NCBI GenBank assembly: GCA_041658985.1
Contig: JBAZZC010000001.1
Span: 65,813 to 129,812 of the forward strand
Source: Minisyncoccota bacterium
GTDB lineage: Bacteria > Patescibacteriota > Minisyncoccia > Phycocordibacterales > DATDWN01
DNA length: 64,000 nucleotides
Direction: 5' to 3'
Shown: piece after piece, positions 1,793-57,597 of the stretch
Layout of the letters: each line of letters begins with the position of its first letter
Numbering within the stretch: the stretch's first letter is position 1
Notes under the pieces: generated by a model
The model's input: only the letters and a program-made list of their open reading frames with translations
Told to the model about the DNA's origin: nothing
Database searches by the model: none
Position numbers and translations under genes: made by a program

Positions 1793-3322
1793 ATGTCATT
1801 AAAAATAGTCCTGCTGTTACTTTCCGTAGCCTCACTTATATCAATAGTGATTGGCTATTACTTGCGTCTCATCGTTTCTCTTGGTCAAAAAGGTTCAATG
1901 GAACTAGACCTCAAGAAAATGATGCTTGAGGCAGAGAAGAAAGAAAAAGCAATCGTTGATGAAGCAGAAAAAAAAGCAGAAGAGTTACTGAAGGTAGCTA
2001 GGTTAGAAATAAAACAAAGAGAAGAAGACAATAAAAAAACAGAAGAAAGACTCATTAAAAAAGATGAGCTTCTTCTAGGTAGACAAACCGAAATAGATAA
2101 AGAGGTAGAAGAGATTAAGAAAAGGATTGAGGAAATAAAGATATTAAGAGACAAGGCGTTAGCTACGACAGAGCAAAAAAAAGAAGAGCTAAGTAAAATC
2201 GCCAAACTCACCCCCGAAGAAGCCAAACAAGAAATTTTAAAAACAGTTGAGAAAGAAAATGAGGAAGATATTTTAGTCCGAATGAAGAAACTGGAAATGG
2301 ACGGCGAGGAAAGATTGGAAGAAAAAGCTAAAGGGATTTTAACTTCTTCAATTCAGCGTCTATCAAATTCAGTTTCATCGGACATGCTTACAACCCATGT
2401 CGTAATTCCAAATGACGAAATAAAAGGAAAAATTATTGGAAAAGAAGGTAGAAACATAAAAGCTTTTGAAAGATGTACTGGGGTTGAGGTTATCGTTGAC
2501 GATACGCCCGGCTCTATTACCATCTCTTCTTTTGACCCCGTCCGTCGCCAAATAGCAAAATCAGCCTTAGAAAAACTTATTGTTGACGGTAGAATTCAAC
2601 CAGCAAAAATTGAGGAAATGGTCCAAAAAGCAGAACAAGAAATCGCTAAAATTATAAAAGAAAAAGGTGAAGAAGCGGTGTATGAAACTGGAGTGTTGGG
2701 CCTCGACCCTCGTATTATTTCTATTCTCGGAAGACTCCACTTCAGAACAAGTTATGGGCAAAATGTTTTAGCCCACTCTATAGAAATGGCCCACATTGCC
2801 GGTATGCTTGCCGAGGAAATAGGTGCAAATGTCCAAGTGGCAAAAGCCGGGGCGTTGGTGCACGACATAGGAAAAGCCCTAGACCATGAGGTTGTTGGTA
2901 CACACATTGAAATTGGTCGAAGAATTCTCCAAAAGTTCGGCGCAGATGAAAATATAATAAAAGCTATGCAAGCTCATCATGAGGAATATCCTTATGAAAC
3001 ACTTGAATCAATGATTGTTCAGTCAGCAGACGCTATATCAGGTGGCCGACCTGGAGCTCGTCGAGACAGTATAGAAAACTATCTAAAACGACTAAAAGAC
3101 CTTGAGGCCGTGGCCAATTCATTTAAGGGTGTTGAGAAATCATATGCCCTACAGGCTGGTCGTGAAATAAGAATTTTTGTCACCCCTAGTGAAACCACGG
3201 ACCTTGAAGCTAAAAAAATGGCTAGAGATATCGCCCTTCGCATAGAAAGTGAACTAAAATATCCGGGTGAAATAAAGGTGACAGTCATTCGCGAGTCTAG
3301 AACCATTGAGTTTGCAAGGTAA
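1793..3322 (+). CDS. rny: ribonuclease Y (alt TTG start at 1784)
   Basis: N-terminal TM helix, long coiled coil, KH domain (IIGKEGRNIKAFE) and HD domain (HSIEMAHIAGMLAEE...LVHDIGKA). Confidence 0.93.
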   Translation: MSLKIVLLLLSVASLISIVIGYYLRLIVSLGQKGSMELDLKKMMLEAEKKEKAIVDEAEKKAEELLKVARLEIKQREEDNKKTEERLIKKDELLLGRQTEIDKEVEEIKKRIEEIKILRDKALATTEQKKEELSKIAKLTPEEAKQEILKTVEKENEEDILVRMKKLEMDGEERLEEKAKGILTSSIQRLSNSVSSDMLTTHVVIPNDEIKGKIIGKEGRNIKAFERCTGVEVIVDDTPGSITISSFDPVRRQIAKSALEKLIVDGRIQPAKIEEMVQKAEQEIAKIIKEKGEEAVYETGVLGLDPRIISILGRLHFRTSYGQNVLAHSIEMAHIAGMLAEEIGANVQVAKAGALVHDIGKALDHEVVGTHIEIGRRILQKFGADENIIKAMQAHHEEYPYETLESMIVQSADAISGGRPGARRDSIENYLKRLKDLEAVANSFKGVEKSYALQAGREIRIFVTPSETTDLEAKKMARDIALRIESELKYPGEIKVTVIRESRTIEFAR

Positions 3323-3339: not shown

Positions 3340-3510
3340 TTTTTTGAGACACGCATAAAGCCCTGCTGGGCTTTTGCTATGCTCGTCAATCAAGAAAACA
3401 ATCTTTCTCAATACTGGCCCTTTCGCAAACTCGGGCTTCGCCCTCAAACAGTGCTTCGGGCTGGCGTACTTCGTCGTTGTTTTCTAATTGACTGTGCAAT
3501 GTCTCAAAAA
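3340..3510. repeat. ~170-bp intergenic repeat element, copy 1 (family also at 11051-11222 and 34254-34424)
   Basis: begins TTTTTGAGACACGCATAAA, core gctatgctcgtcaatcaagaaaacaatct...ttcgcaaactcg...cttcgtcgttgttttctaattgactgtgcaatgtct; ~85-90% identity to other copies by eye; inverted 16-17 bp arms (gtcaatcaagaaaacaa / ttgttttctaattgac). Confidence 0.8.
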
Positions 3511-3691
3511 ACAAGTTTCTCATTCTAACGAGAAAGAAATTTTGTATTTTATACACATCATCTTTAATCCACAGTCAATATGTTGCTTTAAAAAACCGTT
3601 GGTATATACTATTATTCATAGTAGATAGTTTGGACTTTCTGTTCGAAGGTTCCAAAAAATAAAATTATTATTAATTAATTACATTATTAAT

Positions 3692-4404: not shown

Positions 4405-4406
4405 AG

Positions 4407-4477
4407 TGCGGGTAGGGAGAATCGAACTCCCCTCTCAGTCTTGGAAGGACCGCATTCTACCACTAAACCATACCCGC
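4407..4477 (-). tRNA. tRNA-Gly (anticodon TCC)
   Basis: rc reads GCGGGTATGGTTTAGTGGTAGAATGCGGTCCTTCCAAGACTGAGAGGGGAGTTCGATTCTCCCTACCCGCA: 7-bp acceptor stem, D/T arms, anticodon loop CTTCCAA. Confidence 0.85.
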
Positions 4478-4535: not shown

Positions 4536-5639
4536 ATGTTACAAAAAATTTTATCAATGTTAGTCTTGGTAACTATTTTAGTTTTTGGCTTTTGGTCAGT
4601 ACAAACTTCGGTCGCCCCAATTCAAAATGAATACAAAGAAGCGGTGGCAACTACAACCCCGACGCTCCGACCTAATACATCGGAGGTCGGGGCTCCGACC
4701 ACAAGCGTCGGAGCAACCAAATCAAAACCCGTTGTAATAACAAAACAGATTGAGATACCTGAAATAATTACGATTCCGACAATAGAACCAGCACCAGATT
4801 TTGAAAAAATTAATGCATACACTCGTCTGGCCACAGTGAACATTCTCTGTCAGACAAAAGCCAGTGACTTCTCCCCTATTTCTGGTACGGGTATGATAAT
4901 AAGCCAGGATGGTTTGATTTTAACCAATGCCCATGTGGCCCAATATTTTTTGTTGCGTGATTTGTATGTGAAAAATTTTATTGAATGTGTTATTCGAACC
5001 GGCAGTCCTGCCTATCCAAAATATCATGCTGAATTAGTTTATATTTCTCCAGCTTGGGTAGAAGACAATAAAGCCGAGATAAAATTACAAAACCCATTAG
5101 GGACCGGTGAAAAAGACTTTGCCTTTTTACGAATTACTGATGCCATTGATGGCTCTAGATTACCTGCTTTTTCTTTTGTCTCAACCGATGTACGAGAAAA
5201 AATAAATGTAAACGAACCAGTTGTTCTTGTTTCCTATCCTGCTGGATTTCTTGGTGGGCTATCAATCATTCAAAACTTAAACATCACAAGTGCTGTTACA
5301 ACGATTCAAGATGTTTTCACTTTCAAAGAAAACACCATTGATGTAATCGCTGTTGGTGGGACGGTTGTATCACAAAAGGGTGCTTCCGGCGGTGCAGTAA
5401 TAGATAAAAACTCGAAACTCTTGGGAATAATCGCCACAAGTTCAGATGGTGCTGTGACAAGTAGTCGTGGACTAAACGCTATCACACTGGCCTATATAAA
5501 CAGAACACTACAAAGTGAGACTGGGTTTACACTCTCTGAATTCTTATCAAAAGATTTGGCTGGTTATGCAAAAACTTTTCAAGAAAACATTGCTCCGGGA
5601 CTTACAAAAATACTTACCGACGAGATAATAAAACAATAA
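4536..5639 (+). CDS. trypsin-like serine protease (S1C/HtrA-like catalytic domain) with N-terminal TM anchor
   Basis: GTGMIISQDGLILTNAHV (His motif), GASGGAV (GxSGG Ser motif), N-terminal hydrophobic helix. Confidence 0.8.
   Translation: MLQKILSMLVLVTILVFGFWSVQTSVAPIQNEYKEAVATTTPTLRPNTSEVGAPTTSVGATKSKPVVITKQIEIPEIITIPTIEPAPDFEKINAYTRLATVNILCQTKASDFSPISGTGMIISQDGLILTNAHVAQYFLLRDLYVKNFIECVIRTGSPAYPKYHAELVYISPAWVEDNKAEIKLQNPLGTGEKDFAFLRITDAIDGSRLPAFSFVSTDVREKINVNEPVVLVSYPAGFLGGLSIIQNLNITSAVTTIQDVFTFKENTIDVIAVGGTVVSQKGASGGAVIDKNSKLLGIIATSSDGAVTSSRGLNAITLAYINRTLQSETGFTLSEFLSKDLAGYAKTFQENIAPGLTKILTDEIIKQ
4665..4713. repeat. in-frame intragenic GC-rich palindromic element (family 2), copy in protease gene
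   Basis: ccccgacgctccgacct...ggaggtcggggctccgacc...gcgtcgg; second copy 46029-46083 ~85% identical; both translate to TPTLRP.T.EVG.PT..VG in host proteins. Confidence 0.75.
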
Positions 5640-9442: not shown

Positions 9443-11048
9443 TTTCTCAATCCCAAAAGAAGTTACACATGTAACACAAACGCTAGAAAAAGCTGGTTTT
9501 GAGGCTTTTCTTGTGGGTGGGTGTGTTAGAGATTTAATAAGACAGCAATTGGAAATTGGTCAGATGGATGCAATTCAAGGCGGAAATAGAAATAGACGAG
9601 GAGGCGTACATGGGTACGGTGACGAGAATATTTCTATTTCCAACGCAGAAGTGCGCCATATGCCCAATTTTCAACCAAAAGATTGGGATGTAGCGACTAA
9701 TGCCAAGCCAGATGAAATTATAGCCTTATTTAGCAAGACTTTTTATGAAAACGAATTTGGTACAGTTGGGGTTGTAAACGAGCAAACAGACAATGAGACA
9801 CTAAAAGTGATTGAGGTAACTCCATATCGCATAGAATCAAAATATTCTGACGGAAGACACCCGGATAGTGTTGTTTTTAGCCAAAAAATTGATGACGACC
9901 TAAAAAGACGTGACTTTACAATCAATTCTCTGGCCTATTCTGTTTCTGCCTCATCAGCAGACGGGTCACAGGGAACAATTGTTGATTTATACGATGGCCA
10001 GAAAGATATACAAAACAAGGTCTTACGCACAGTGGGTGAGCCAGTAGACCGTTTCACAGAGGATGGTCTACGTATTTTGAGAGCAATAAGACTAAGTACA
10101 GAACTTGGATTTGAAATAGACCCAGATACGGAAAAGGCTATATTTGAGAATTCAAACCTCTTGGAAAACATATCCATGGAACGCATTAGGGATGAATTTA
10201 CAAGGATAATTATGTCAGAGAAACCAATGGACGGCCTACTTGCTATGAAAAAGTTGGGAATTATGAAGTATGTAGTTCCAGAACTTGAAGAAACCTATGG
10301 GGTTGAACAAAACCAAGCCCACGCCTACGACGTCTGGGAACATCTACTTCGTTCTGTACAACATTCAGCCGATAAAAATTTTCCTCTGGAAATTCGTTTG
10401 GCGGCTCTATTACACGATATTTCTAAGCCAGAGAATCGTCGTAGAAGCAAGGACAAAGACAAGTGGACTTTCTATGGCCACGAAGTTGTCGGGGCAAAAA
10501 CAGCAAAAAAAATCCTAACAAATCTAAAATATTCAACAAAAATAATTGAAAAAACTGTAATTCTCGTCAGGTGGCACATGTTCTTCTCCGACACAGAGCA
10601 AATTTCGCTCTCTGCGGTCCGTAGAATGATTGTAAATGTTGGAAGCTCTTCCATATGGGATTTGATGAATGTGCGCATCTGCGACCGTATAGGCACTGGT
10701 AGGCCTAAGGAAGACCCATATCGTCTGCGTAAATACCACGCAATGATAGAAGAAGCCCTTCGAGACCCAATTTCTGTTGGAATGTTAAAAATTGATGGTA
10801 AAGGATTAATGGATGTTACACATGTAACACCAGGGCCAAAGATTGGTTTTACTTTACATGCACTTCTTGAAGAGGTTTTAGAAGACCCAAAGAAAAATAC
10901 AGCTGAATATCTAGAAAAAAGGGCCAGTGAGCTTATTTTACTTCCTGAAAATGAATTAAGGGCACTCGGAGAACAAGGAAAGATGTCAAAGGAAGAAGCA
11001 GATGAGGAGGAAATCAAAAAGATAAGAGGAAAACACTACGTAAAATAG
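9435..11048 (+). CDS. cca: CCA-adding tRNA nucleotidyltransferase with HD domain; contains ~40-aa in-frame insertion
   Basis: GFEAFLVGGCVRDL...DWDVATNAKPDEI (pol-beta NTase head), HD motif HLLRSVQH...LLHDISKP; insertion between VRDLIR and PKDWD. Confidence 0.88.
   Translation: MNNFSIPKEVTHVTQTLEKAGFEAFLVGGCVRDLIRQQLEIGQMDAIQGGNRNRRGGVHGYGDENISISNAEVRHMPNFQPKDWDVATNAKPDEIIALFSKTFYENEFGTVGVVNEQTDNETLKVIEVTPYRIESKYSDGRHPDSVVFSQKIDDDLKRRDFTINSLAYSVSASSADGSQGTIVDLYDGQKDIQNKVLRTVGEPVDRFTEDGLRILRAIRLSTELGFEIDPDTEKAIFENSNLLENISMERIRDEFTRIIMSEKPMDGLLAMKKLGIMKYVVPELEETYGVEQNQAHAYDVWEHLLRSVQHSADKNFPLEIRLAALLHDISKPENRRRSKDKDKWTFYGHEVVGAKTAKKILTNLKYSTKIIEKTVILVRWHMFFSDTEQISLSAVRRMIVNVGSSSIWDLMNVRICDRIGTGRPKEDPYRLRKYHAMIEEALRDPISVGMLKIDGKGLMDVTHVTPGPKIGFTLHALLEEVLEDPKKNTAEYLEKRASELILLPENELRALGEQGKMSKEEADEEEIKKIRGKHYVK
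9545..9676. repeat. ~130-bp palindromic element inserted in-frame in cca
   Basis: terminal inverted repeats gcaattggaaattgg / cccaattttcaacc and inner 13-14 bp inverted repeat ggaaatagaaatag / tatttctatttcc; encodes QQLEIGQMDAIQGGNRNRRGGVHGYGDENISISNAEVRHMPNFQ absent from canonical CCA enzymes. Confidence 0.65.
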
Positions 11049-11050
11049 CA

Positions 11051-11222
11051 TTTTTGAGACACGTATAAATCGTTGGTACAATTTTACTATGCTCGTCAAT
11101 CAAGAAAACAATCTTCCTCGACACTGGCACTTTCGCAAACTCGTCGCTTCGCTCCTCAAACAATGCTTCGTGCTGGCGTGCCTCGTCGTTGTTTTCTAAT
11201 TGACTGTGCAATGTCTTAAAAA
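11051..11222. repeat. ~170-bp intergenic repeat element, copy 2
   Basis: TTTTTGAGACACGTATAAATCGTTGGTAC...gctcgtcaatcaagaaaacaatcttcc...ttgttttctaattgactgtgcaatgtcttaaaaa; antisense small ORF (MHSQLENNDE...) shared with copy 3. Confidence 0.8.
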
Positions 11223-11755
11223 TGCTATTTTACGTAGTAATAAAGAAAGGTGGAAAATAAAAAACCGCCCAATAACCAGGGACCATTGCTACTCAATAGT
11301 CACTAATGATTGGGCGGTTGGGGAGAAGAGTCATCCAGCTATCCAAATAAGCCAGTTATAATAACGAAGCTCAAAATATAGTAGATAGTTGTAGGTTCGA
11401 TTAAGGCTGGACCTACCGAAAACCAGATGGTCTTCTAAAGAGAGGAGTCGCGAACTCCAAAAAAGAAATGCATTTCAAAACAAGGAACAAATTTTTGTAG
11501 AAATTCCGTCCGACGAGATATCGGACATCCAATCTACGTCTGATATAAGTTTATATTTTTTTAAAAGACATGTAAAGGACATTCCTAATCAAAAGGTGGA
11601 TAACTCCAAAACAAAATATTTTTAAAGTCCAATGTCAAGTTAATTGTGCCTTATTTTTCTAAAGAAAAAGCCGGGTCGTAAAACTCGGCTACCCTTGACC
11701 TCCAGGGTGAGGAGCTCTCTTTTGTGGAGAAGAGCAGGAATCCATGAGTACGATA

Positions 11756-13423: not shown

Positions 13424-16400
13424 TTACTTAATGTCCAGACCGTTATCTTTGATAATCTGTTGAATCTCTGGATCTTGAAGAATGTCTCTATGAATTTTAA
13501 ACGTATTAAGTATTTTCTCAACAGCAGGAATCTCTTTGCGAGAAAGCCGTATGATTATTCCCGCTCTGCCTGCACTCTTAACCTCTGGACTCTCTATAAC
13601 CTCTTCTGAAACAGAGAATTCGTCCACCATTCTCTTTGCCTCTCTAACATGACCCTGGGAAAGTGCACCTACTATTCCCTTTTTGGTGGCCTCTTTAATT
13701 TCTGGGGTTTGTAAAAATTCTTTTGGAACTTTAAACATCTCGAGTATTTTCACTGCATTTTTTATGTGTCCAGCGGATATATATGCAACAACTCGACGAG
13801 TTACATATTTTTTAATTTCCGGGTCTTGTATAGCTTCCTCAGAGACTCCAAGTCGGGTGACAACATCTTCGATTCTTTCATCATTCCCTTCTGACGGATA
13901 CTGACTAATCGCTTTTTGAACTGCTTTGTGAACTGATTCTTGTGGAATTTTAAACCTTTCAACCATTGTACCTACAAAAACCAAATCATACCATTTAAAT
14001 GAAAGTTTGGTATCCATCACGGTTACTGCTTCTCTTTGAATTTCTGTGTCTTGAAAGATTTCGTCTGAAATACCCAGCTTATCAACTGCTACAGATATCC
14101 AACCCATATCAACATGAAGATTGCTGATGATAAGCTCTTTAATTATTTTATCAGTATCTTCTTTCGAAACACCAAATGATTTTACTACGTCCTGACCAGT
14201 AGGAAATTCTTTTTGAGCAAAAAACAACTTAATGAGTTCTCCAGCAGCCCCTTGAACCTTGGGACCGCGCATAAATTCTTCTGAAACTTTGAACATATCG
14301 GCTAGTTTTCTAGCACTAACCGGGCTTTTTCTAGTGAGAGACAAACGCTGAATAATCTCTTCCTGAACCGCTTCCTGCACTTCTGGACTCTGTAACGTTT
14401 CTTCAGAAATCTTAATTACACTGACTAATAATTTAATGCTCTCATCAAAATCGTGTACAGAAGATAAGCGAGAATCAACATTTAGCTGCCTAATAATCCA
14501 ACTCTTGACTGATTCCTGTATCTCGGGACTCTGCAACACTTCTTGCGAGACCTTAAACTGTTTTACTGTTTTTATAGCTTGATCAATATTACCACTAGAT
14601 AAATCCTTAATTATCTTCCTCTTGGCAACTTCTTGAATTTCCGGACTACTTAAAATACTGTCTGGCAACTGAAAATTATCAATTAATATTTGGAGTTTGA
14701 TGTTATTTCCCGAGGAATCGCATGAAATAATGGCATTTTTGACTATTTCATAAACAACACTCTCTTGAACTTTAAATACTCTTATTACCTCCTTTGCCCT
14801 ATCGAAAGATACCTCTGATAAACTCTGGCTAATGACCTTTCTAGCATGTTCCTGAATTTGATTATTTTGAAGTATCACATCTGAAACTTCCATATCACGA
14901 AGCAATGCTACGGTTTTGACACGAAGCTCAGAAGAAGAACAGCCCAAGATATATTTTTTAATTATGGCGTCCTTGGCCTCCTGAGGAACCCTAAATGCCT
15001 TTATTAGTTCTTTGGCAACAAGGAATTTATCAAAAAGTAGATTTTTTGTGATTTTATCCCTAACAGCTTCTTGAATCTTTGGACTATGTAACACTTCATC
15101 TGAAACATCTAGATTACTAAAAATACTTTCGAAGGTACTAAAACTAGTCTCTGAAGAAAGTTTATCTAAAATAAGTGTATTAATGGCTTCTTGAATTTTC
15201 GGATTTTGAGCAACATTCATTCCAAATAGTTTTATCACCTGCCCAGCTTCTACCACACGACCATTTCGAATGAGGTTAAAAGCACAATAAGTAGTAGCTT
15301 CTTGGATTTCTGGGCTTTGTAAAATATCATTTGAAACTTTAAACTTTTCAAATATAAAACTCACATTGTCTACAAGCCACCGGTCAGACAACATCTTTAA
15401 AACAAATGGTTTGACAGCTTCTTGAACTACTGGGTCTTGCAAGATTTCATCTGAAATATTATACAAAACAATTATATTTTTAATTTCAAAACAATTACTG
15501 TATGATAACATATCTATCAATCCTAATTTAACGATTTTTTGAAATTCAGAAGTCTGAAAGAACTCTATTGGAACAGTAAAACGCTTTTGTATTTCAATAG
15601 CCCTAGAATCACGACTTTTTGTAAAACTGTGTATAATCGCTCGCTTAGCAACTTCTTGAACTATCTCTTCTGAAAGATTTAAATTTTTTATTTTTCTAAT
15701 AGCACTATCTGTTTCACCCTCAGCCAATAAATCGACAATTTCATCAATTCTTTTTTTGTTTTCTATAAAAAACTCCTCAAGTTCCCTCCTTTTCTTTATT
15801 TTTTCGGCAATGTTTGGAAATGATTCTTCTAGTTTAAATAGCTTTACAAGAAAAATCTCTCTCTCACCCTCTTTTTCATTTGATAATTGATCTTTAATGT
15901 GCCTTTCAATCATGCTTCTGCAGTAATTCTTAAAACCAGCTCCTGATTCCTTGGACAAGCTAAGTTTGTGCATGAGAGAAGACACTAAACCCTCTTTTTC
16001 ACCCTCACAAAGCTTAGAAACAATTGAAAAAAATTCCTCATATTGACCTGACATTTTTTTACCAGATTCTAAAAATGTTCTGAGTGAAAAAAAGACCGTC
16101 TGACGAGCATCATCATCTCCCAGATCTTTCAAATATCTCGTATCACCCTCACTTGCAAAATATGATGCAAGAGCTATTAATTCTGCTTCAGATAGGTTTT
16201 CTTTTTTTGTTTTATTTATACTAAGTGCTTTAGAAATTTTTGAAAAAGCAGGATTTTTTTGTCTACTTTTTAATTTTATAAATGGAAATAATTTATCCAA
16301 AAATACGTCCAACCCTCCTAAATAATCACAAGCAATTACAATTCTTTCACTATCCTGATTAGTAATTGATATATCTAATATATTATTACTTGTAAGTAGA

Positions 16401-20351: not shown

Positions 20352-21268
20352 TTAAGGCTTATTGTGAAACCTCTTATGTATGTCTCTTAAATGCTTATCC
20401 GTCACATGAGTATATATTTGCGTAGTGATAATACTTGAATGCCCAAGTAGAGCCTGGACTGAACGAATATCTGCACCATTGCCGAGTAAATCTGTGGCAA
20501 AGCAGTGTCTTAGCATGTGTGGAGTAACTCTTTTTGAAATACCGGCCTTAATTGCGTACTGTTTTACAATTCTTTCAACAGTCCTTTTGTGAAGGGGATT
20601 GGCTTGTTTGTTAACCACCTCTTTACCCACATGAACAAAAAGGCCGTCACTCATATCTTTGCGTGCTTTTAGATATTCTTTCACACTTTTTTTTGCTTCA
20701 TCGGAAATGAAAACCACACGCACTTTTCCGCCTTTTCCCCGAACAGATAATTCGTCGGAGTTTAAGTTGATATCCGAGGTTAAGGAACAAAGCTCCGAAA
20801 CACGAAGTCCGGTCGAAAACAATAGCTCCAAAATAGCCTTGTCACGCAAACTTTTTATGTCTGTGCCGTTTGGGGCATTGAGAAGTCGCTGTAACTCTAT
20901 ATGAGTAATGAGGTCAAGTGTTCGCTCTCCTGTTTTAGCAAGTTCAATCCGCTCAGAGGGAAGAGTTTTGATTTCTTGTCGTGCAAGATACTTGAGAAAA
21001 GCACGAATGGCGATAAGATAATAATTCTGAGTTTTTTTGGATAAGGTATCCTGCTTGGTTTTGTCGTGTCCTGTCAGTTGTCTGTTTAACCAAAGACGAA
21101 ATTGGCGGACTGTTTCGTCTTAATCTCTGTTGGGTTGTCTGTTTTTATAAAACTCAAAAAACGAGTCAGATAATGGTCATAATTTTCTACGGTTTTCATA
21201 GAACGACCACGCTCTATCTCTATATATTCCAAAAACTGCTGTTTGAGTTGCTTTAGACCTTGTGCCAT
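20352..21268 (-). pseudogene. XerC/XerD-type tyrosine recombinase, frameshifted (N-terminal core-binding part 21086-21268, catalytic domain 20352-20849)
   Basis: N-term LEYIEIERGRSMKTVENYDHYLTRFLSF (core-binding); C-term ...LGHSSIITTQIYTHV with conserved R, H-R-H and Tyr; middle ~80 aa not in either frame. Confidence 0.7.
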
Positions 21269-21577
21269 TTATCCGCACACCAATTTTGGCATTGTGTTTT
21301 TGTTGCTTGTTAAGTATTTATCACAAGGTGCTATTCTAATAGCTTAAAATTAAACCGCAGACATTGTGAAAACACGATGCAACTATGCCAAATTTGGTGT
21401 TCGGATTAATTATAACACGAACCAGTGTCGCACAATATAGATTGTTCAACTTAAAAAGTCGAATAATCTACGAATATTTTGCAACATTATCATGTCGCAA
21501 AATATTCGATCCAAACTATATGAAGAAGGGGTCCCACGAGAGGACCCCTTGAAACCCAAACAACACGTTCCCAGAAC

Positions 21578-31900: not shown

Positions 31901-32630
31901 GGTTCCTTAAAAACAATTTTCCGAAACACCTGCCTCCTTCTTGGTTCACTAATATTAAGTGATTCAAGAAGGGGGTAGGTATGCTACGGGCAGATACCAG
32001 AACCTCCATAATGGTGTGATTTGATAGGTACACCTGTAAGAGGTGTAAGTAACAGATGATCCACATGGCATAGTGGGTAACGGGGTAAGGCTCTCCGTGT
32101 CATCGTGTTACCACATCAAATGGGTATAGTGCCACGCCAAAACTGGCGGGGGACACTATATCAACTGGAGTACTCCAGACTGCCCAATTAGAGCTTCGGA
32201 AGGTTGTAGCTACCAAACCTTGCCCTGAGGAACCAATGTTCCTCGGGGTTCCTTAAAAGCAAATCACGTTGTGGTTTCCTTTTAAGGGAAGAGAGGAACA
32301 CGAGGATAAACAAACACCTAAGTTGACCTCCTCTTGTATGTGAATCTCTTCCCGTCATGCCGTTGTCTAGGTCAGTGCAGAGACCAGAGGACAAGAAGGG
32401 TGAAATACTCCGCCTTTAAGTGATAAACCCTCCACTGGCCCAAAAGGTCAGAAGGCGGATGGTGAGTTAAGTGACTCATCATTGGGGATTAAAATACGGG
32501 TGGCCACCATGTTCTACAAAACAAGGAGGTCGGCCAAGCCCGCAAAAAACACCCCGAACTGCACACGTTCTTTGGAGCACAGGCTCCACGATTAAGGCTT
32601 CCAAGCTACCATCGTGGAGCCTTTTTCGTA
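31846..32630 (+). ncRNA. candidate ~785-nt structured non-coding RNA with hammerhead-processed 5' end and hairpin terminator
   Basis: no convincing ORF on either strand; G+C-rich with many local hairpins (e.g. gaggaacc-aatg-ttcctc); bounded by ribozyme cleavage site and terminator 32578-32630. Confidence 0.3.
32578..32630 (+). terminator. rho-independent terminator, copy 1 of an identical 52-bp repeat
   Basis: ggctccacgat-N18-atcgtggagcc + TTTTTCGTA; identical copy 32951-33003. Confidence 0.75.
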
Positions 32631-32736
32631 TCTAAAATGTGTCCCCAGGAGAACTTGACTTTTACCACCTGTCTGTGTTATAATACAAGTAGGAGGTGGG
32701 GCACTACTAACAAAACCCACCGAAGGGAGTTAACAA

Positions 32737-32937: not shown

Positions 32938-32950
32938 TGTTCCTTGGGGC

Positions 32951-33003
32951 AACAGGCTCCACGATTAAGGCTTCCAAGCTACCATCGTGGAGCCTTTTTC
33001 GTA
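32951..33003 (+). terminator. rho-independent terminator, copy 2 of 52-bp repeat
   Basis: identical to 32579-32630. Confidence 0.75.
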
Positions 33004-33010
33004 TAAAAAT

Positions 33011-34253: not shown

Positions 34254-34424
34254 TTTTTTCAAGACACGTATAAATCGTTGGTACGATTTTACTATGCTCG
34301 TCAATCAAGAAAACAATCTTCCTCAGTACTGGCCCTTTCGCAAACTCGCTTCGCTCAAACAGTGCTTCGGGCTGGCGTACTTCGTCGTTGTTTTCTAATT
34401 GACTGTGCAATGTCTTGAAAAAAC
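34254..34424. repeat. ~170-bp intergenic repeat element, copy 3
   Basis: TTTTTTCAAGACACGTATAAATCGTTGGTACG...ttgttttctaattgactgtgcaatgtcttgaaaaa. Confidence 0.8.
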
Positions 34425-34471
34425 AGTGATTTCGCCTCAAACAACAGATCTTGCCATGATATAATCACTAG

Positions 34472-38953: not shown

Positions 38954-39049
38954 TTTAAAACACCTGTCCTGTTAGAGTTAAAGCTTGTTTAAATAACGCA
39001 AAAAATATTTTTAAAATTAATTGTGAAGAACTCTAATAGGATGATATAA

Positions 39050-39192
39050 TTAATCCGCACACTAAATTTAGCATCGTTGCCTTGTGTTGTTACAACACAT
39101 AAGTTCAATCACTAAGTAATTGATACACTAGTTTGTATTAAACACGTAACAGGCAACAAAAAACACAATGCTAAAATTAGTGTGCGGATAAA
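39050..39192. promoter_or_regulatory. large inverted repeat (24-bp arms TAATCCGCACACTAAATTTAGCAT) with nested palindromes upstream of the T4SS-like cluster
   Basis: taatccgcacactaaatttagcat (39050-39073) vs atgctaaaattagtgtgcggataa (39168-39191); internal tgtgttg-tta-caacaca. Confidence 0.4.
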
Positions 39193-40007
39193 TGCCAAAC
39201 AACAGGATTTTATTTGTTTTAATTATTTGTTTCGGAGTTGTTGCTTCCGTTTATCTACTTGCAAGAAATTCCGCTAGCCCACAGACAATCGGGGACACAA
39301 CCGATGTTTCTGTAAACCCCTACATCAATCTAGATAAAAACACAAACAATGATTGGAAAAAAATTCTAGTAAACCTTGATTCAAGTAATAGCACCACTAC
39401 CATCCTGACAAATGAAGACCCAGGTGTATTTAATGAAACAACACTAACAGCACAAATGTCTCGCGATTTTCTTTCCCAGTATTTGTCGGCGATAAAAAAT
39501 GGACCAGTCACCCCAGAAGAGGCAGCAAAAATCGCAGAAACCACTCTCTTAATACCAGAATACACAAAAGGTGTTCGAGTAAAATATAACATCAAGAATC
39601 TGCATGTAATCAATAATACCAATACAAACACAATAGAAGTGTATGGAAATACGCTAAATCAAAGCCTGAAAGACAAATCTTCTCAGGTAAAAGAAAACCC
39701 AATAGAAATATTTAATAATGCCATAACCAGTGCAAGTGAAACAAAATTGGCTAAACTAGACCAAATTATTTTTCTAAACAAAAGTCTCCTAACTGACCTG
39801 CTCACAATGAATGTGCCTAAAAGTGCTATTGAGGTACATCTTGCCCTTCTTAATGTTACTAGTAGTCTTTTATCAGACCTAGAAGCAATGAGGTTGGTTT
39901 TTATAGACCCTGTTGCGGGCTTGATTGGAATTAGTCAATATCAAACAGATACTTTTTTGTTAAAAACAGCACTAACAAACATGAACACATACCTAATGCA
40001 AAACTAA
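39192..40007 (+). CDS. membrane-anchored hypothetical protein (first gene of T4SS-like cluster)
   Basis: N-terminal TM ILFVLIICFGVVASVYLL; Asn/Thr-rich. Confidence 0.5.
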   Translation: MPNNRILFVLIICFGVVASVYLLARNSASPQTIGDTTDVSVNPYINLDKNTNNDWKKILVNLDSSNSTTTILTNEDPGVFNETTLTAQMSRDFLSQYLSAIKNGPVTPEEAAKIAETTLLIPEYTKGVRVKYNIKNLHVINNTNTNTIEVYGNTLNQSLKDKSSQVKENPIEIFNNAITSASETKLAKLDQIIFLNKSLLTDLLTMNVPKSAIEVHLALLNVTSSLLSDLEAMRLVFIDPVAGLIGISQYQTDTFLLKTALTNMNTYLMQN

Positions 40008-43000: not shown

Positions 43001-43236
43001 GCGCTGGTGGACAAGGTCGTTTGCGAAAAATGACCTTTGCTCCATCTCAAAATAAAATATATATCCAAACACTTGCAACCTCTCTCGCCACAACTACTTG
43101 TATTGACGGTACTATTGGAAAAAATATGAAATATCGTGTGGATGGTTGTTACGAAACCGATTCAAACAGCGAGTTTATTTTGGACCTAAATACTGGCACA
43201 GTCAATCCAGGACCATTTGAATTAAAATTACCATGA
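40066..43236 (+). CDS. large secreted protein: signal peptide, Ig-like/PKD-like domain, C-terminal calcineurin-like metallophosphoesterase domain
   Basis: SP MKKLFIAIMIVSLLSISVPQKVEA; beta-rich segment TVNLSVSPSSIVPGSSSIITWSS...TYTISCSG; phosphoesterase motifs VVIPDTQGY, GDLISE, GNHDF, STHAYL, ISGHDMP. Confidence 0.7.
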   Translation: MKKLFIAIMIVSLLSISVPQKVEAQYIDIMNLAKEFPLDTIATVIGKIMLKKLTAQTVNWINSGFKGKPAFITDSNQFFLDIGDNTASQFLSETQLNKLCSPFKAEVRLALVKNYIQEDNYTCTLDTLKNNYDAFISDFSKGGWTGWFEMTQTSAGNPYSAYLAAESKLLTTVQNNKARKETQLDQSGGLLSLEKCKEGMEMTMEKAKRLTGANFSDILTPGFLESQGLPELGECAESEKETVTPGIAIDKALGDSLGSGWRQLQAADEINEILTALVSQFMSKVFGDKGGLAGVSKSSNSSPSFTSQLENEPEPPPIDPGQLQITPTTMVCLTNEDTGEQTCEIKPGIIKGPEWLENIVPIDGETGKGPGTPGEIPPGLSGICDSIASERGKFPAGTISRENIRTIIENAAGSNNASGWGMLEKKSGANCTGVSCDIVFHGPTCYIYDVLGSATGSGDLGGPATPQCNFAGGNMDRSRWVGVGSDTRGSGPCAVVIPEGGTPPGGKSPCLTTGNIYASFLREALTFTLEKNQALANSLNNKENSLKFLALVVEELKIFGVNATEKVLNGNNNPSSGDLIAIWKTGDTTMERYDAIIGVNAGDRTIASAVTSEQFVGFIPLNCTISGGGTNCGCPTTPPPPAPIVPTVNLSVSPSSIVPGSSSIITWSSNNATSCTSSGAWTGTRAISGSQTVSPTVTSTYTISCSGTGGTKSQSVQLTVSTGTPPISPITLPSDYFTFVVIPDTQGYTAYDSVNYKGFTNITNWIVKNFSGLKIKAAAQVGDLISESYQAYQWVNASNAMKILDDAKVPYGILAGNHDFSTTTPQTTDVFARYFPVSRYNKNFWWGGSSDSNNSNSYILFSGGGENYVLISMRYTTPSNRVADATWANSIIKKYPSSKIILSTHAYLNYQGLRQYQDQTNGGPITSYENLWTDIVYPNSNVFMVISGHDMPKGEASRIDKNITGKNVYQLLSNYQSNGAGGQGRLRKMTFAPSQNKIYIQTLATSLATTTCIDGTIGKNMKYRVDGCYETDSNSEFILDLNTGTVNPGPFELKLP

Positions 43237-45350
43237 TTAGAATGCGAAAATTTTTACCACACATCCTAATACTTTTTGTCTTAGTGATTTTATTTATTCC
43301 AACTCATTTTGCACATGCTTGGGGATGGCCCGACTTAAACCCAATAACATATATTGTTGAATTTCTTTCAATGGCCTTAATTCAACTCGTAAGTTGGCTT
43401 ACTGGAATTGCTGGAATGTTTTTGAATTTTGTATTGAAGTATACCATCATAGATATGTCTGAACACCTAAAAACTCTAACGGGAATAAACATCGCCTGGA
43501 AAGTTGTCCGTGATTTGATAAATATTGTTTTTATATTTCTCCTTGTCTATGAGGGAATAAAGATGATTATAGGGTTAAGTGATATAGACAAAATCAGAAA
43601 ATTCGTTAGTATGATTGTTTTAGCATCGCTTCTTGTAAATTTCAGTTTATTTTTTACAAAAGTACTGATAGATGCATCAAATATAGTAACTATAAATATT
43701 TACCAGTCTATTCTTGGTCCTGACGCCAACACAAAAGACTATGGCCTGTCAGACCCCGTTATGAAAGCCATAGGGTTACAGGGTATATGGGACAGGAACG
43801 GAGAAGCAAACCCCGCTTCAGATCAAGGAGTGGCGGGGGTGCTTATTTTTGGGATTGGTTCAATCTCAATATTGTTAGTTGCAGCTTTTGTTTTTTTTGC
43901 TGTAGCTATCATATTTGTTGTTAGATACATAACTTTGATTGTCCTTTTAATGCTCTCACCCGTAGCCTATATGGGAATGGCTCTACCTTTCTTAAAAAAA
44001 TATGCTGATGACTGGTGGAATTCCCTGAATAGTCAGCTACTTTTTCCTCCCATTTACATGATAATGACTTGGGTTGTGTTAACTCTCATGTCAAGTGATG
44101 GTTTTATTCCCCAAAAAAGTTTTAAGGACTTGCTTCTTGGTGGTGGAGCAAAACCACAACCCGAAACTATGGGAATTGCCTTGAATTTTGCCATCATCAT
44201 AGGTCTCCTCGTTTTTTCTCTTATAATCGCAAAAAGCACCTCCACCAAAGGCTCAAAGTACATCGGGGATGCTACGGGCAAACTAACCGCCTTTGCCGGT
44301 GGAGCAGTAATGGGTGGAACGGCTAGACTTAGTAGGGCAACTTTGGGAAGAGCTGGAAATAACTGGGCAAATGATGAGGCCTTAAAAGAAAGAGCAGCTC
44401 AGGGTGGCTTCAAAGGTAGTGTTGCCCGTATGCAACTAGCCGCAGGAAACCAAATGGCCAAGAGGAGTTTTGATGTCAGAGCTGTAAAAGTAGCCGGGGT
44501 ATCGGCTGGAAGTCTGGCTGATTTTGGTAAAGTAGACAGCAAAAAAGAGAACTTTAAGGCAATACGGGAGGAGCAGACGAAGAAAGCGGAAGAAAAAATG
44601 AAACAGTACAAACCAAACGACGCTGCTTATGCAGAAGCAAAGAGAAAAGATGATGCAGCCAAAAAGCCTCTTGAAGAAGAACTAAAATCCTGGGAGGGTG
44701 TTGAGGGCGACCGGGCCGTACAAGCAAGGAAGAGAATCAATAAAGATATTCAGAGGGTTGCCCATTACGAAAAAGACCTCAACGATACATATAGGAGAAG
44801 AGTAGAACAAGCTGCTACTAGAGAAGAACACGGAATAAGTGAGGAAGAAAAAGCAAAAATAAAAGAGATACAAGATAAACAGGCGGCCGGTGAGAGAACC
44901 ACACAAAAGGAAGACGAAACCGTTAGAAAACTTATTGAAAAACACGAAAAGATTAAGAAGGAGGAAGACAGATTACAAGAAATAAAAGAGAGACAGGCGG
45001 CCGGTGGAAAGATTACATGGGGAGAACAAGCGGATCTTCTTGGCCTGCGTGATTGGAACTCAAAAGAGGCTGTCTGGCGAAAGGTGGCTGGTACGTTTGG
45101 AACAGCAACTCATGTGGTAGGGATGACTTCTTTACCAAAAACAAGAGAAGATAGAAAGGCGCTCGCACGTAAAATGAGGGCTGTTCCTAAGGAAAAGACT
45201 AAAGCAGAAAAAGCCCTAGAAGCAATGACTGCTGCCGCAAAAGAAGAAGCTGAGAAAGGGGGAGGGGCAGCTGGAGCAGCTTCAACTACCACACCAGGCC
45301 CAACACCACCACCAGGAGCTTCAGGTGGAACACCAGGAGCCACGACATAA
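43233..45350 (+). CDS. VirB6/TrbL-like polytopic membrane protein with charged coiled-coil and Gly/Pro/Thr-rich C-terminal tail
   Basis: 6-8 TM helices in first 330 aa, then KE-rich region and GGGAAGAASTTTPGPTPPPGASGGTPGATT tail; position upstream of VirB4-like genes. Confidence 0.4.
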   Translation: MIRMRKFLPHILILFVLVILFIPTHFAHAWGWPDLNPITYIVEFLSMALIQLVSWLTGIAGMFLNFVLKYTIIDMSEHLKTLTGINIAWKVVRDLINIVFIFLLVYEGIKMIIGLSDIDKIRKFVSMIVLASLLVNFSLFFTKVLIDASNIVTINIYQSILGPDANTKDYGLSDPVMKAIGLQGIWDRNGEANPASDQGVAGVLIFGIGSISILLVAAFVFFAVAIIFVVRYITLIVLLMLSPVAYMGMALPFLKKYADDWWNSLNSQLLFPPIYMIMTWVVLTLMSSDGFIPQKSFKDLLLGGGAKPQPETMGIALNFAIIIGLLVFSLIIAKSTSTKGSKYIGDATGKLTAFAGGAVMGGTARLSRATLGRAGNNWANDEALKERAAQGGFKGSVARMQLAAGNQMAKRSFDVRAVKVAGVSAGSLADFGKVDSKKENFKAIREEQTKKAEEKMKQYKPNDAAYAEAKRKDDAAKKPLEEELKSWEGVEGDRAVQARKRINKDIQRVAHYEKDLNDTYRRRVEQAATREEHGISEEEKAKIKEIQDKQAAGERTTQKEDETVRKLIEKHEKIKKEEDRLQEIKERQAAGGKITWGEQADLLGLRDWNSKEAVWRKVAGTFGTATHVVGMTSLPKTREDRKALARKMRAVPKEKTKAEKALEAMTAAAKEEAEKGGGAAGAASTTTPGPTPPPGASGGTPGATT

Positions 45351-45355
45351 ATACC

Positions 45356-46159
45356 ATGAATGACCAGGAAATAGACAATTTTATAAATACTTTATCCAAA
45401 CCCGTGAAAGAGTTTATCTTTGCTGGTGTCTGGGAAGAAAGAACAGCAGAGATTGCAAAAAAATATTCACTAAATGATACACAGGTAAATGATTTAGTAG
45501 ATACTGTGCTTTTTGTCCTTACTGGCCTGGAAAGTCCCGAAGCCCTTTTAGAAACAATTATTGCAGAGCTGGGTATCTCGAGACTCCTAGCTGAACAAAT
45601 AATGGATGACCTGGAAATAAGAGTTTTTGAATACGCCGTCAAAAGCATAGAGAAGAAAACGGACAGTAGCCAGCAGTTAGCATCTAGTAGCCAGGAAGAA
45701 ATTCAAAGTCAAAACAACCAAAACAAAACACCAGAAAAAGATATTCCAGAAATACGACCGAAAAATTTACCAGAAATAGAAGCAAACATTTTACCAATGA
45801 CTGAGCCCGGAGAAAAGGTGCGTATCGTGGAACAACCAATTAACACTGTCAAACCAGAAACAAAACCCCAGGAAACCCCAGGGGAAGCCCCTGGGCAAAC
45901 TTCGCGACCTTCTGAAATTATTTACAAAGCTGTGCCTGAACCCATTCCTGTACCACAATACACAGAAGCACCGGTTGAAAATAAAGTAATGCCTGCCCTA
46001 GAGACTGAAGCTAAACCATCTGAGCCAACCCCGACGCTCCGACCTAGTACGTTGGAGGTCGGGGAGCCGACTGAAAACGTCGGCTCAAAACCACCAGAAC
46101 CAGTACCACCTCCTGTAAAAAAATATGCTGTAGACCCATACCGAGAACCACTGGAATAA
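45356..46159 (+). CDS. hypothetical acidic/Pro-rich protein, carries family-2 palindromic insert
   Basis: ORF; PTPTLRPSTLEVGEPTENVGS segment encoded by palindromic element. Confidence 0.5.
   Translation: MNDQEIDNFINTLSKPVKEFIFAGVWEERTAEIAKKYSLNDTQVNDLVDTVLFVLTGLESPEALLETIIAELGISRLLAEQIMDDLEIRVFEYAVKSIEKKTDSSQQLASSSQEEIQSQNNQNKTPEKDIPEIRPKNLPEIEANILPMTEPGEKVRIVEQPINTVKPETKPQETPGEAPGQTSRPSEIIYKAVPEPIPVPQYTEAPVENKVMPALETEAKPSEPTPTLRPSTLEVGEPTENVGSKPPEPVPPPVKKYAVDPYREPLE
46029..46083. repeat. in-frame intragenic palindromic element (family 2), copy 2
   Basis: ccccgacgctccgacctagtacgttggaggtcggggagccgactgaaaacgtcgg. Confidence 0.75.
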
Positions 46160-46236: not shown

Positions 46237-46683
46237 ATGCGTTATCAAGTACCACAATTTATTGAAATAGAAGACAAAATCATTGGCCCACTGACCATAA
46301 AACAATTCACATATATTGTTGGTGGTGCCGGAATGGTTTTTATTTTTTACACATTTTTACCTATATACATAGCCATATTACTCATAGCAGTTGTTGTTCC
46401 TCTTTCTTTGGCTTTGGCTTTTTATAAAATAAATAACAAACCATTTATTGATTTTCTAGAATCTGCTTTTATCTACTATACAAAACAAAATCTTTACATT
46501 TGGAAAAAAGAACCAAAATCGCCTCCACGGCGATCCGCCGACGAGGCGGAAAAATTATCCGAATTAAGTGAGATATATGTTCCTCGTTTGTCTGATAGTA
46601 AATTGAAAGAGTTGTCCTGGACACTCGATATAAACGAAAACTTAAATCCACTTACGGGAGAAGACGGAAAAACGACAAGGTAG
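46237..46683 (+). CDS. small two-TM protein, VirB3/PrgI-like by position and topology
   Basis: two adjacent hydrophobic helices (AGMVFIFYTFLPIYIAILLIAVVVPLSLALAF); precedes VirB4-like genes; contains family-1 palindrome 46534-46550. Confidence 0.4.
   Translation: MRYQVPQFIEIEDKIIGPLTIKQFTYIVGGAGMVFIFYTFLPIYIAILLIAVVVPLSLALAFYKINNKPFIDFLESAFIYYTKQNLYIWKKEPKSPPRRSADEAEKLSELSEIYVPRLSDSKLKELSWTLDINENLNPLTGEDGKTTR
46534..46550. repeat. in-frame short GC palindrome (family 1)
   Basis: tccgcc-gacga-ggcgga encoding RRSADEAE. Confidence 0.7.
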
Positions 46684-53863: not shown

Positions 53864-53870
53864 GAAGATG

Positions 53871-53960
53871 GTTATAAAGTTTATAAGGTAAAAAGTTTAT
53901 AAAGTTTAGGGTTGTTTGTGTTTATTTTATGAACTTTATAGACTTTATGAACTTTCAACT
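53871..53960. repeat. AT-rich inverted-repeat module R1 (arms of tandem 9-bp units AGTYTATAAAG / CTTTATRRACT)
   Basis: gttataaagtttataaggtaaaaagtttataaagttt ... ttttatgaactttatagactttatgaactttc; related modules at 54325-54413, 54561-54647, 57515-57597. Confidence 0.7.
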
Positions 53961-54307
53961 TATGATAACACACCAGACATAGAAAGTAACTCTGTAACAT
54001 CTTTCTCTAGTGTAGAAAAGGTGAGAAGTTCTGGTGTTTTTTTAAAAGAAAAAAGACAAAAGTAACCTGGTTTTATTTTTTTTAGATTTTTTAAAATTAT
54101 AGAATATCCTCTTCTTCTGTATTTGTTTCTGTCTACTGCTTTTTGACACACCTTCTTTGACACAGAAAAGGAAAACTTGCTGTCTGAAGCCCCGCCAGAG
54201 GAAATTGGCGCCACACACAAAACTAAGTTGGGGGAGTGAAATCGCCTCCCATTTTTAAGAATATTAGCAAATTCTTTTCTTAATATTCTCCTTCTTTTTG
54301 GGAGCAT
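53960..54307 (-). CDS. rnpA: ribonuclease P protein component
   Basis: basic 115-aa protein RRRILRKEFANILKNGRRFHSPNLVLCV...; between rpmH and yidC. Confidence 0.8.
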   Translation of the reverse strand: MLPKRRRILRKEFANILKNGRRFHSPNLVLCVAPISSGGASDSKFSFSVSKKVCQKAVDRNKYRRRGYSIILKNLKKIKPGYFCLFSFKKTPELLTFSTLEKDVTELLSMSGVLS

Positions 54308-54324
54308 AATTGAGTCAAAAGTTA

Positions 54325-54413
54325 AAAGTTTATAAAGTCTATAAAGAAAATCATTAAATTAGGTCATTTTTGACTACATTTTCAACCTTATGGACTTTAT
54401 GGACTTTCGACTT
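54325..54413. repeat. AT-rich inverted-repeat module R2
   Basis: aaaagtttataaagtctataaag ... ccttatggactttatggactttcgactt. Confidence 0.7.
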
Positions 54414-54415
54414 GT

Positions 54416-54553
54416 CTAGACTGTACTCAGTTTAGCTCTTCCTTTTCGTCTTCGTCTCAAAATGGTATTTCTGCCAGTTTTTGACTTATTACGCACCAAA
54501 AATCCATGTGATTTGGCTCGTTTTCTCTTTTTTGGTTGATATGTTTTTGACAT
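54416..54553 (-). CDS. rpmH: 50S ribosomal protein L34
   Basis: rc translation [45 protein letters not shown] (45 aa) matches L34; not in the >=60-aa ORF track. Confidence 0.9.
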
Positions 54554-54560
54554 AATGAAT

Positions 54561-54647
54561 AGTTATAAAGTTTATAAAGTTAAAAGTCTATAAAGTCAAG
54601 GCTGTTTTGTACTTACTTTACGAACTTTATGGACTTTATGGACTTTC
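54561..54647. repeat. AT-rich inverted-repeat module R3 (in rpmH-dnaA divergent region)
   Basis: agttataaagtttataaagttaaaagtctataaagtc ... ctttacgaactttatggactttatggactttc. Confidence 0.7.
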
Positions 54648-54739
54648 TACTGTTGTACACAACTTATACACATATTATTAACACATTGGCCGTTTTTTAA
54701 CAAGTACTATATTTCCTTATTACCTATATAATAAGAAAC

Positions 54740-57514: not shown

Positions 57515-57597
57515 AAAAGTTCATAAAGTTATAAAGTCCATAAAGTAGATACAGAAGCATTTACTTTATAAACTTTACAAACTTTCAACTTTATAAC
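57515..57597. repeat. AT-rich inverted-repeat module R4 (after dnaN)
   Basis: aaaagttcataaagttataaagtccataaagt ... ctttataaactttacaaactttcaactttataac. Confidence 0.7.

Follow-up and report, generated by a model that had tools for sequence, protein, structure and literature searches.

Two copies of a 57-nt double-hairpin element were found in the window, as we call the whole 64,000-nt stretch of DNA that was analysed, and both lie on the plus strand inside open reading frames (ORFs). The contig from which the window comes measures 148.7 kb and belongs to a MAG of Candidatus Paceibacterota (Patescibacteria). Copy A occupies positions 4657..4713 and falls within the gene for a membrane-anchored trypsin-like serine protease (4536..5639, plus strand), which was identified from a Trypsin_2 domain match and from its homologues. 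A tRNA-Gly(tcc) gene on the minus strand (4406..4477) has its 5' end 180 nt from copy A and is mentioned as context only, family copies elsewhere being strongly associated with tRNA genes. Copy B, at positions 46029..46085, lies in the gene for a hypothetical protein (45356..46159, plus strand) belonging to a T4SS-like cluster. This cluster was recognised from homologue synteny and from the domain matches of the neighbouring genes, namely a TrbL_3-like gene (43233-45350), a PrgI gene (46237-46683) and a VirB4/TraG-like ATPase gene (47424-49235). Both host assignments agree with those of an initial annotation of this DNA, which had also recognised the two palindromic sites; the sites stand, but copy A starts at 4657 rather than at 4665 and ends at 4713, and copy B spans 46029-46085.

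Each copy consists of two directly adjacent GC-rich hairpins with a CCGAC/GTCGG core, and the inner stem of hairpin 1 in the copies is formed by CTCCGA(C), the loop and (G)TCGGAG. In copy A, hairpin 1 (4657-4692, plus strand) reads CCCCGAC, a bulged G, CTCCGA, the loop and TCGGAG-GTCGGGG, while hairpin 2 (4693-4713, plus strand) reads CTCCGAC, the loop and GTCGGAG. Hairpin 1 of copy B lies at 46029-46064 (plus strand), and its hairpin 2 (46065-46085, plus strand) reads AGCCGAC, the loop and GTCGGCT. The two copies are identical at 46 of 57 positions (81%, counted by hand from the sequences) and not at about 85% as initially stated. Hairpin 2 carries a compensatory double swap, with GCTCCGAC/GTCGGAGC in copy A and GAGCCGAC/GTCGGCTC in copy B.

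A 36-nt degenerate pattern derived from both copies (CCCCGACGCTCCGACCTANTACNTNGGAGGTCGGGG) matched the window only at 4657-4692 and 46029-46064, both on the plus strand, and none of 100 shuffled sequences contained a match, which confirms that the two GC-rich palindromic copies are real. The fold proposed as a check on them gave two hairpins in each copy, with energies of -35.9 and -37.4 kcal/mol for the two copies (z about -6.6), and an equally good fold was obtained in none of 200 shuffles. The covariance model scored copy A at 70 bits (E 1e-12) and copy B at 67.5 bits. The palindromic units are 36 and 21 nt long and form an inverted (head-to-head) pair; because both follow one design in opposite orientation, matches to the model are obtained on the reverse strand as well, at 37.5 and 33.5 bits. 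Run with filters off, the covariance model detected no additional intact or decayed copy in the 64-kb window or in the 7.5 kb past its 3' end, and the element count is two copies in the 76 kb of contig read.

The initial annotation had described both copies as in-frame, and this holds for ORF 4536-5639 as well as for ORF 45356-46159, where the sense frame gives the peptides TPTLRPNTSEVGAPTTSVG and TPTLRPSTLEVGEPTENVG respectively. The antisense frames are also open through both copies, as had been noted, and read ..GAPTSDVLGRSVGV.. and ..GSPTSNVLGRSVGV... The copies are flanked by ..CAAC and AAC../AAAAC... An intrinsic transcription terminator was ruled out, as no T run is present 3' of copy A or copy B and both copies lie within ORFs. 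A DGR repeat, a CRISPR repeat and an integron attC site were ruled out as well; the element is single-copy and located in ORFs, and the differences between copies are not adenine-specific.

Insertion into the host genes

Copy B encodes 19 residues of the Pro-rich C-terminal tail of its host protein. A close relative of this protein (P0122; 80% amino acid identity, 252 versus 267 residues) is encoded in a syntenic TrbL/PrgI/VirB4-like cluster in which copy B is missing altogether, and the empty site is present in three independent assemblies of the relative. The relative reads ..GAGCCAA/T/AAAACC.. where the window reads ..GAGCCAA[57 nt: CCCCGAC...GTCGGCT]CAAAACC.., and the boundaries of copy B were set by this comparison. 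Filled and empty sites differ by exactly 57 nt, or 19 codons, between flanks that are approximately 93% identical. No target-site duplication was found in the filled/empty alignment with the close relative. Short flank repeats (CAAC, AGAAG and CTT) had at first suggested a duplication, which was rejected as the true empty site shows none. The comparison supports insertion of copy B about as directly as sequence allows, and a single filled/empty pair would fit insertion or precise excision alike. A decayed intergenic double-hairpin copy (30.8 bits) was observed at positions 3011-3060 of locus L111, which comes from the relative having the empty site, and the empty-site lineage has therefore also been exposed to the element family.

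Copy A encodes residues ~41-59 of the protease, located in a hypervariable linker that connects the N-terminal hydrophobic segment to the protease domain. A variable linker rich in Thr, Pro and Lys is found here in each of the 119 closest homologues of the protease (50-67% identity). The peptide PTLRP..EVG..VG occurs in none of them, and a peptide conserved in homologues that lack the palindrome, the pattern which the initial annotation had set against an insertion, was therefore not seen. Together with the exact 57-nt empty site of copy B, these homologues bear out the proposal of in-frame insertion into two unrelated genes.

The protease gene including the element recurs unchanged in an assembly made independently from another run (L002, Logan SRR6484324). 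Assembly errors are possible from GC-rich palindromes, and the element could be imagined as an assembly or sequencing artefact, for instance a chimeric join or an adaptor-like sequence. Given the independent assembly, the ORFs that stay open through the element and the presence of the family in dozens of MAGs and metagenomes of unrelated studies, we attach virtually no weight to this explanation.

The element family across lineages

A scan of one genome per prokaryotic species with the exact pattern CCCGACGCTCCGA-N5-15-GGAGGTCGGG found 39 loci in many Patescibacteria lineages and some Omnitrophota. The lineages include Kaiser-, Nomura-, Lipton-, Zambryskii-, Vogel-, Doudna- and Wildermuthbacteria as well as Saccharibacteria, and a few loci belong to Omnitrophota or to bins that carry a Planctomycetales or Gammaproteobacteria label. 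Some of the matches outside Patescibacteria stem from co-assembled bins and may be mis-binned. The covariance model, which was built from aligned copies and used on the window and on the fetched loci, added approximately twelve more diverged copies in the same loci, and some of the other genomes have two to three copies within 8 kb. The element pattern had no match in the IMG/VR viral contigs, and no sign of a phage vector was seen. Rfam yielded no family, whether gathering thresholds or permissive ones were applied; in the window, gathering scores are reached by tRNAs only, and the matches around the element are noise with E>3. Literature searches by topic and by literal sequence found no published description of the element, which thus appears to represent a widespread and undescribed family.

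Over 36 aligned copies, 99.1% of the cells are paired. Hairpin 2 keeps an almost invariant CCGAC/GTCGG core, even though this core lies outside the search pattern. Pairs outside the search pattern covary, namely the closing pair of hairpin 1 (6/45; U-A in 20 copies, C-G in 14) and the outer two pairs of hairpin 2, which take four pair types (46/79; CG 19, AU 7, UA 5, GC 3) and three pair types (47/78; CG 23, GC 10, UA 2). The covariation score of the alignment was reached by none of 500 shuffles, although covariation is no proof of selection since templated mutation in quasi-palindromes can yield palindrome-preserving changes.

Family copies were found in intergenic regions, in tRNA fragments, beside tRNA genes and inside GyrB, LigA and many other unrelated genes, in either orientation. 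The GyrB copies, from three Kaiserbacteria, are located in the C-terminal region of the protein, where the element-encoded APTLDEVDAGVPTSDEGRSVGK is extra relative to the solved GyrB used in the alignment and falls in a poorly aligned stretch before QRYKGLGEM. The LigA copies are from two Kaiserbacteria, and the corresponding stretch is absent from the L015 homologue, the LigA of another lineage. Among the copies in long ORFs, about half are sense and half are antisense to the host gene, in differing frames. Element length is a multiple of three in 9 of 12 ORF-borne copies versus 14 of 27 other copies, a bias too weak to use.

The two window genes read the element in one common reading frame and both sites are exposed linkers, as might be expected if both proteins had recruited a functional peptide module, the linear motif TPTLRP..EVG.PT..VG. 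Elsewhere, however, the element is read in other frames or from the other strand, for example as PRRQRVGVPTSD.. in LigA and as APTLDEVDAGVPTSDEGRSVGK in GyrB, homologues exist without the peptide, and the nucleotide stems are invariant across lineages with diverged flanking genes. Such a module is extremely improbable, and the diversity of frame and orientation already effectively refutes it. Since other genes carry the element in either orientation and in further frames, the conserved entity is the DNA and not the peptide.

The hairpins might instead form a functional mRNA structure that is selected in each gene, for example because it stabilises the message, marks a processing site or signals a pause in translation. 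The very stable fold (z -6.6) and the covarying stems are compatible with this, as is the position of the element in the likely 5' leader of the ORF in the nuclease cassettes described below. On the other hand, antisense copies are about as frequent as sense copies, copy B is missing altogether from the close relative, there is no Rfam match and the contexts extend from intergenic regions and tRNA fragments to many unrelated genes. In addition, a strand test revealed no asymmetry, as G·T (G·U in RNA) accounts for 8 and A·C for 5 of the 790 cells. G·T being no commoner than A·C, both strands are equally constrained, as expected of a DNA palindrome. These observations argue for a DNA-level palindrome rather than an RNA element, and we consider an mRNA structure very unlikely.

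The nuclease and tRNA cassette

Many family copies are flanked by tRNA D-arm sequence. These were considered as insertions in live tRNA genes, but in-silico deletion with approximately 700 boundary combinations per locus restored no tRNA, and the few junction-spanning tRNA calls merely fused the upstream flank onto a complete downstream tRNA. The D-arm-flanked copies are instead tRNA 5' fragments that are followed by an intact tRNA copy. The resulting cassette has the order tRNA 5' fragment interrupted by the element, stand-alone 86-aa GIY-YIG ORF and intact tRNA gene, and the stop codon of the ORF is often within or abutting the 5' end of the intact tRNA. That the family crosses lineages and is tied to such cassettes is beyond what the initial annotation could see.

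A GIY-YIG ORF is 9-84 nt away from the element in 10 of the 39 exact-pattern loci. Searching from the nuclease side, we found the element at most 150 nt upstream of the GIY-YIG ORF in 53 of 68 metagenomic loci (78%), mostly at 2-40 nt, and just downstream of the ORF in 12 of the 68. Only two distinct copies were present at a distance in the rest of these 68 loci (~330-345 kb), one in L062 and one in L074-L076, which represent a single locus. An intact tRNA gene follows the ORF within ~110 nt in approximately 50 of 60 cases, with a dozen different specificities. The upstream element always lies within a duplicate of the first 10-25 nt of the following tRNA and occurs in either orientation. It separates G10 from C11 (..TAG[element]CTCAG..) or else interrupts the D-loop between G15 and T16 (..CTCAG[element]TTGGTAGAG..). 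Comparison of the fragments with the intact tRNAs revealed no target-site duplication. Examples of the cassette among L042-L109 are found in L044 (4880-5360), L048 (4890-5460) and L077 (1100-1640). In L048 and L077, the ORF is enclosed by two element-interrupted tRNA 5' copies and the intact tRNA comes afterwards, an arrangement that looks as though insertion and duplication had taken place twice. In L063 (3212-3300), the element lies downstream of a tRNA-Asn and precedes a second tRNA-Asn copy of which the 3' part, from about position 22 onwards, is present; elements therefore occur at tRNA-fragment junctions on both sides of the cassette.

The encoded protein matches the GIY-YIG domain PF01541 (E 1e-13), and residues Y5, Y16, G18, R26, H30 and E62 are invariant in 109 nuclease sequences. 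The family comprises at least 2388 clusters at 90% identity that are annotated only as 'GIY-YIG nuclease family protein', and no NCBIfam family reaches its cut-off for the 86-aa nuclease. A structure model (pLDDT 88.8) best matches the UPF0213 proteins, followed by the I-TevI catalytic domain, Slx1 and UvrC. The protein consists of the catalytic domain only, and the lack of an extra DNA-binding domain would fit a structure-recognising enzyme.

The nuclease clades track both the tRNA type and the element class, and the three parts of the cassette therefore evolve together. Compared with the nuclease-adjacent copies of L033 and L044, copy B of the window is changed only in the loop of hairpin 1, in one stem base and in one base of the hairpin-2 loop. 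No GIY-YIG gene of the cassette family was found in the window, in the 5.5 kb upstream or in the 6.9 kb downstream, and a profile of the GIY-YIG ORF against six-frame translations of the window and of L001 gave nothing below E 0.8. The reconstructed empty sites were compared with the tRNA D-arm target by eye, and the similarity was not convincing.

Candidate mobilisation, known analogues and further repeats

The element is best filed as one of the coding-palindrome/REP-dimer kind with a novel candidate mobiliser. Like REP dimers and REPINs, it is made of short GC-rich palindromic units paired head-to-head, and the single-copy nuclease gene flanked by repeats recalls the RAYT gene flanked by REPs. 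Intragenic REP dimers encode 20-30 aa, often in replication or repair genes, and are known from Proteobacteria, Verrucomicrobia and Rickettsia (PMC3733652); the present element likewise has copies in GyrB and LigA. Two superfamilies of tagged REPs, GTAG and CGTC, have been defined, the latter without a known transposase, and RPE-4/-6 are mentioned in the same work (Di Nocera et al. 2013, PMC3733652). In contrast to these, the solo copies described here have no unpaired GTAG or CGTC tag, and a GTAG before the element, where present, represents positions 7-10 of the tRNA fragment. The stem core CCGAC/GTCGG with a bulged base fits the features of no described family, and the copy number is low in the sequence read (2 in 76 kb) against tens to hundreds per genome for REPs. 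The host phylum, Patescibacteria, also differs, and the linked gene encodes a GIY-YIG nuclease (PF01541) and not an HUH tyrosine transposase as in REPIN-RAYT systems.

The element also resembles the Rickettsia palindromic elements in being an in-frame palindrome in unrelated genes (here the protease, the T4SS-cluster gene, GyrB, LigA and others). These Rickettsia elements (RPEs) are selfish palindromic DNA found in-frame in many unrelated genes and also in RNA-gene contexts, and they are translated and tolerated in surface regions. RPE-1 has a length of ~100-150 bp and a Rickettsia-specific sequence, and we know of no partner enzyme for it. Compared with its description, the present element is shorter (50-60 bp), extends over many classes of a different phylum and is tightly linked to a nuclease gene. 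The RPEs are reportedly the subject of work by Ogata and colleagues in 2000 and 2002. Adjacent GC-rich hairpins in an AT-richer genome, both intergenic and intragenic, are a feature shared with the double-hairpin elements of Allomyces mitochondria and the GC clusters of yeast mtDNA. The latter two are organellar and unrelated in sequence; they show presence/absence polymorphism and are sometimes located beside mobile endonuclease ORFs, although to our knowledge a link to the enzyme was never established. By analogy, the RPEs, the yeast GC clusters and the Allomyces elements may be regarded as functional analogues of the element.

With respect to the enzyme, the T4 SegB protein is a free-standing GIY-YIG homing endonuclease in a phage tRNA gene cluster, and the cassettes likewise have a small GIY-YIG gene beside tRNA genes, with clades that track the neighbouring tRNA type. 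In the phage Seg and I-TevI proteins, DNA binding is assigned to a separate domain, whereas the 86-aa nuclease is a catalytic domain only with UPF0213 proteins as its best matches among solved folds, and unlike the Seg-type endonucleases it always comes with a palindrome-interrupted duplicate tRNA 5' fragment. The ends of the element are inverted (CCCCGACGC...GCGTCGG..) as in a DDE-type MITE, but no target-site duplication was found in either the filled/empty or the tRNA-fragment comparisons.

Taken together, the two window copies are probably solo copies of a mobile or recently mobile palindrome of the REP-dimer/RPE kind, with the GIY-YIG nuclease as its candidate mobiliser, a role that we infer from the cassettes. 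The element, ~50-60 bp in length, is built from two inverted hairpin units of the form NNCCGAC, one bulged base, a variable inner stem-loop and GTCGGNN. Its hairpin or cruciform form may be the substrate of the nuclease, which would nick or break the DNA, and repair copying from a resident element could then spread it, comparable to the action of RAYT transposases on REP sequences. Insertion would be precise and without target-site duplication. An intragenic copy would be translated in whatever frame and orientation it landed, and would survive only at sites where the reading frame remains intact after the net addition of sequence (57 nt or 19 codons here) and where the protein tolerates the extra residues, as in linkers, tails and surface loops. 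The two window copies would be non-autonomous, with no nuclease gene of the family in the 76 kb read.

In a more far-reaching form, which we advance tentatively and hold to be somewhat less than an even chance, the 86-aa GIY-YIG protein and the double-hairpin DNA would constitute a mobile system of Patescibacteria with two components that has so far gone unrecognised, equivalent to RAYT/REPIN but based on a GIY-YIG enzyme. In this system, the gene of the nuclease would reside in the 5' region of tRNA genes, with the tRNA regenerated by duplication, and the nuclease would spread the element in trans, including into the essential gyrB and ligA genes, where it becomes coding. Two observations count against the nuclease link, namely that no nuclease of the family is present in the window or its flanks and that two copies per 76 kb are far below the level of classical REPs. 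The association could also be indirect, in that an element preferring D-arm-like DNA would survive only in the dead tRNA fragments produced by the cassette.

The main competing explanation accepts a mobile palindrome but has it moved by an unseen transposase of the HUH/RAYT or another type, or by host replication and recombination at hairpins. The nuclease would then co-occur only because both end in the 5' regions of tRNA genes, the element persisting only in the non-functional fragments that the cassette creates. Solo copies far from any nuclease gene fit this explanation, as do elements located beside tRNA genes with no nuclease gene in between (L015-L017, L026 and L034) and the published CGTC-type REPs that lack a known transposase (PMC3733652). 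Insertion without target duplication is typical of IS200/IS605 and REP/RAYT chemistry too. Hairpins and the absence of a duplication are found in the element as in PATE-like elements derived from IS200/IS605; its left flank often ends in AG, though not in the window, and no TnpA was seen. Against it, the element occupies 78% of the nuclease loci, its class is co-inherited with the nuclease clade and the solo copy B is nearly identical to nuclease-adjacent copies. Furthermore, among the ORF families shared between element-bearing loci, no enzyme family other than GIY-YIG was recurrent, and nothing transposase-like emerged. Movement by another agent is thus unlikely, yet deserves to be kept in view beside the preferred reading of a nuclease-mobilised palindrome.

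Coding palindromes have been known since 2000 in the form of Rickettsia RPEs, intragenic REPs and mitochondrial GC clusters, and for most of them we know of no enzyme that moves them. The element described here has a specific and statistically tight gene partner, which makes the question of mobility approachable at the bench with an 86-aa protein and a 57-nt oligonucleotide. The streamlined genomes of CPR bacteria are usually viewed as repeat-poor, and they here carry selfish DNA that reshapes essential proteins (GyrB and LigA). The element also marks presence or absence at the strain level, which is useful to population genomics. For annotation, the 19-aa segments encoded by the element should not be taken as conserved protein motifs, and the tRNA 5' fragments that precede the nuclease genes are pieces of pseudo-tRNA.

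Several other repeats were observed in the window. A ~175-nt repeat occurs in three copies (~3345-3516, ~11055-11228 and ~34260-34427; 82% mean column identity over aligned stretches of ~250 nt), with a 65-aa ORF on the minus strand. Its middle copy is bracketed by a 27-nt inverted repeat of 96% identity (11035-11061 and 11212-11238), and the repeat might represent either a MITE-like element or a small gene present in several copies. A 67-nt hairpin repeat (GGCTCCACGAT...ATCGTGGAGCC followed by TTTTT) is present at 32570-32636 and 32943-33009, 373 nt apart and with 91% identity; it looks terminator-like and like a palindrome family distinct from the double-hairpin element. Inverted repeats (54 nt at 83%, 39 nt at 92% and 30 nt at 83%) at 21263-21417 and 39042-39197 surround a segment of ~17.7 kb just upstream of the T4SS-like cluster; this segment may have been inserted or may be invertible, with the repeats as its ends. 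In the GatB gene (61392-63338), a PDDEXK_3 (PF13366) nuclease-domain match lies between two GatB_N matches, which suggests another in-frame selfish insertion, here of a nuclease domain in a housekeeping gene. AT-rich ACTTTATRRACTTTAT-type repeat clusters, both direct and inverted, are located at 53868-54652 and 57563-57591 beside rpmH-rnpA-yidC and dnaA-dnaN, and this region is probably the replication origin. Finally, a very large ORF on the minus strand (13450-15600) contains repeats that are 60-79% identical and mostly 111-141 nt apart, commonly at 117 nt or 39 codons.
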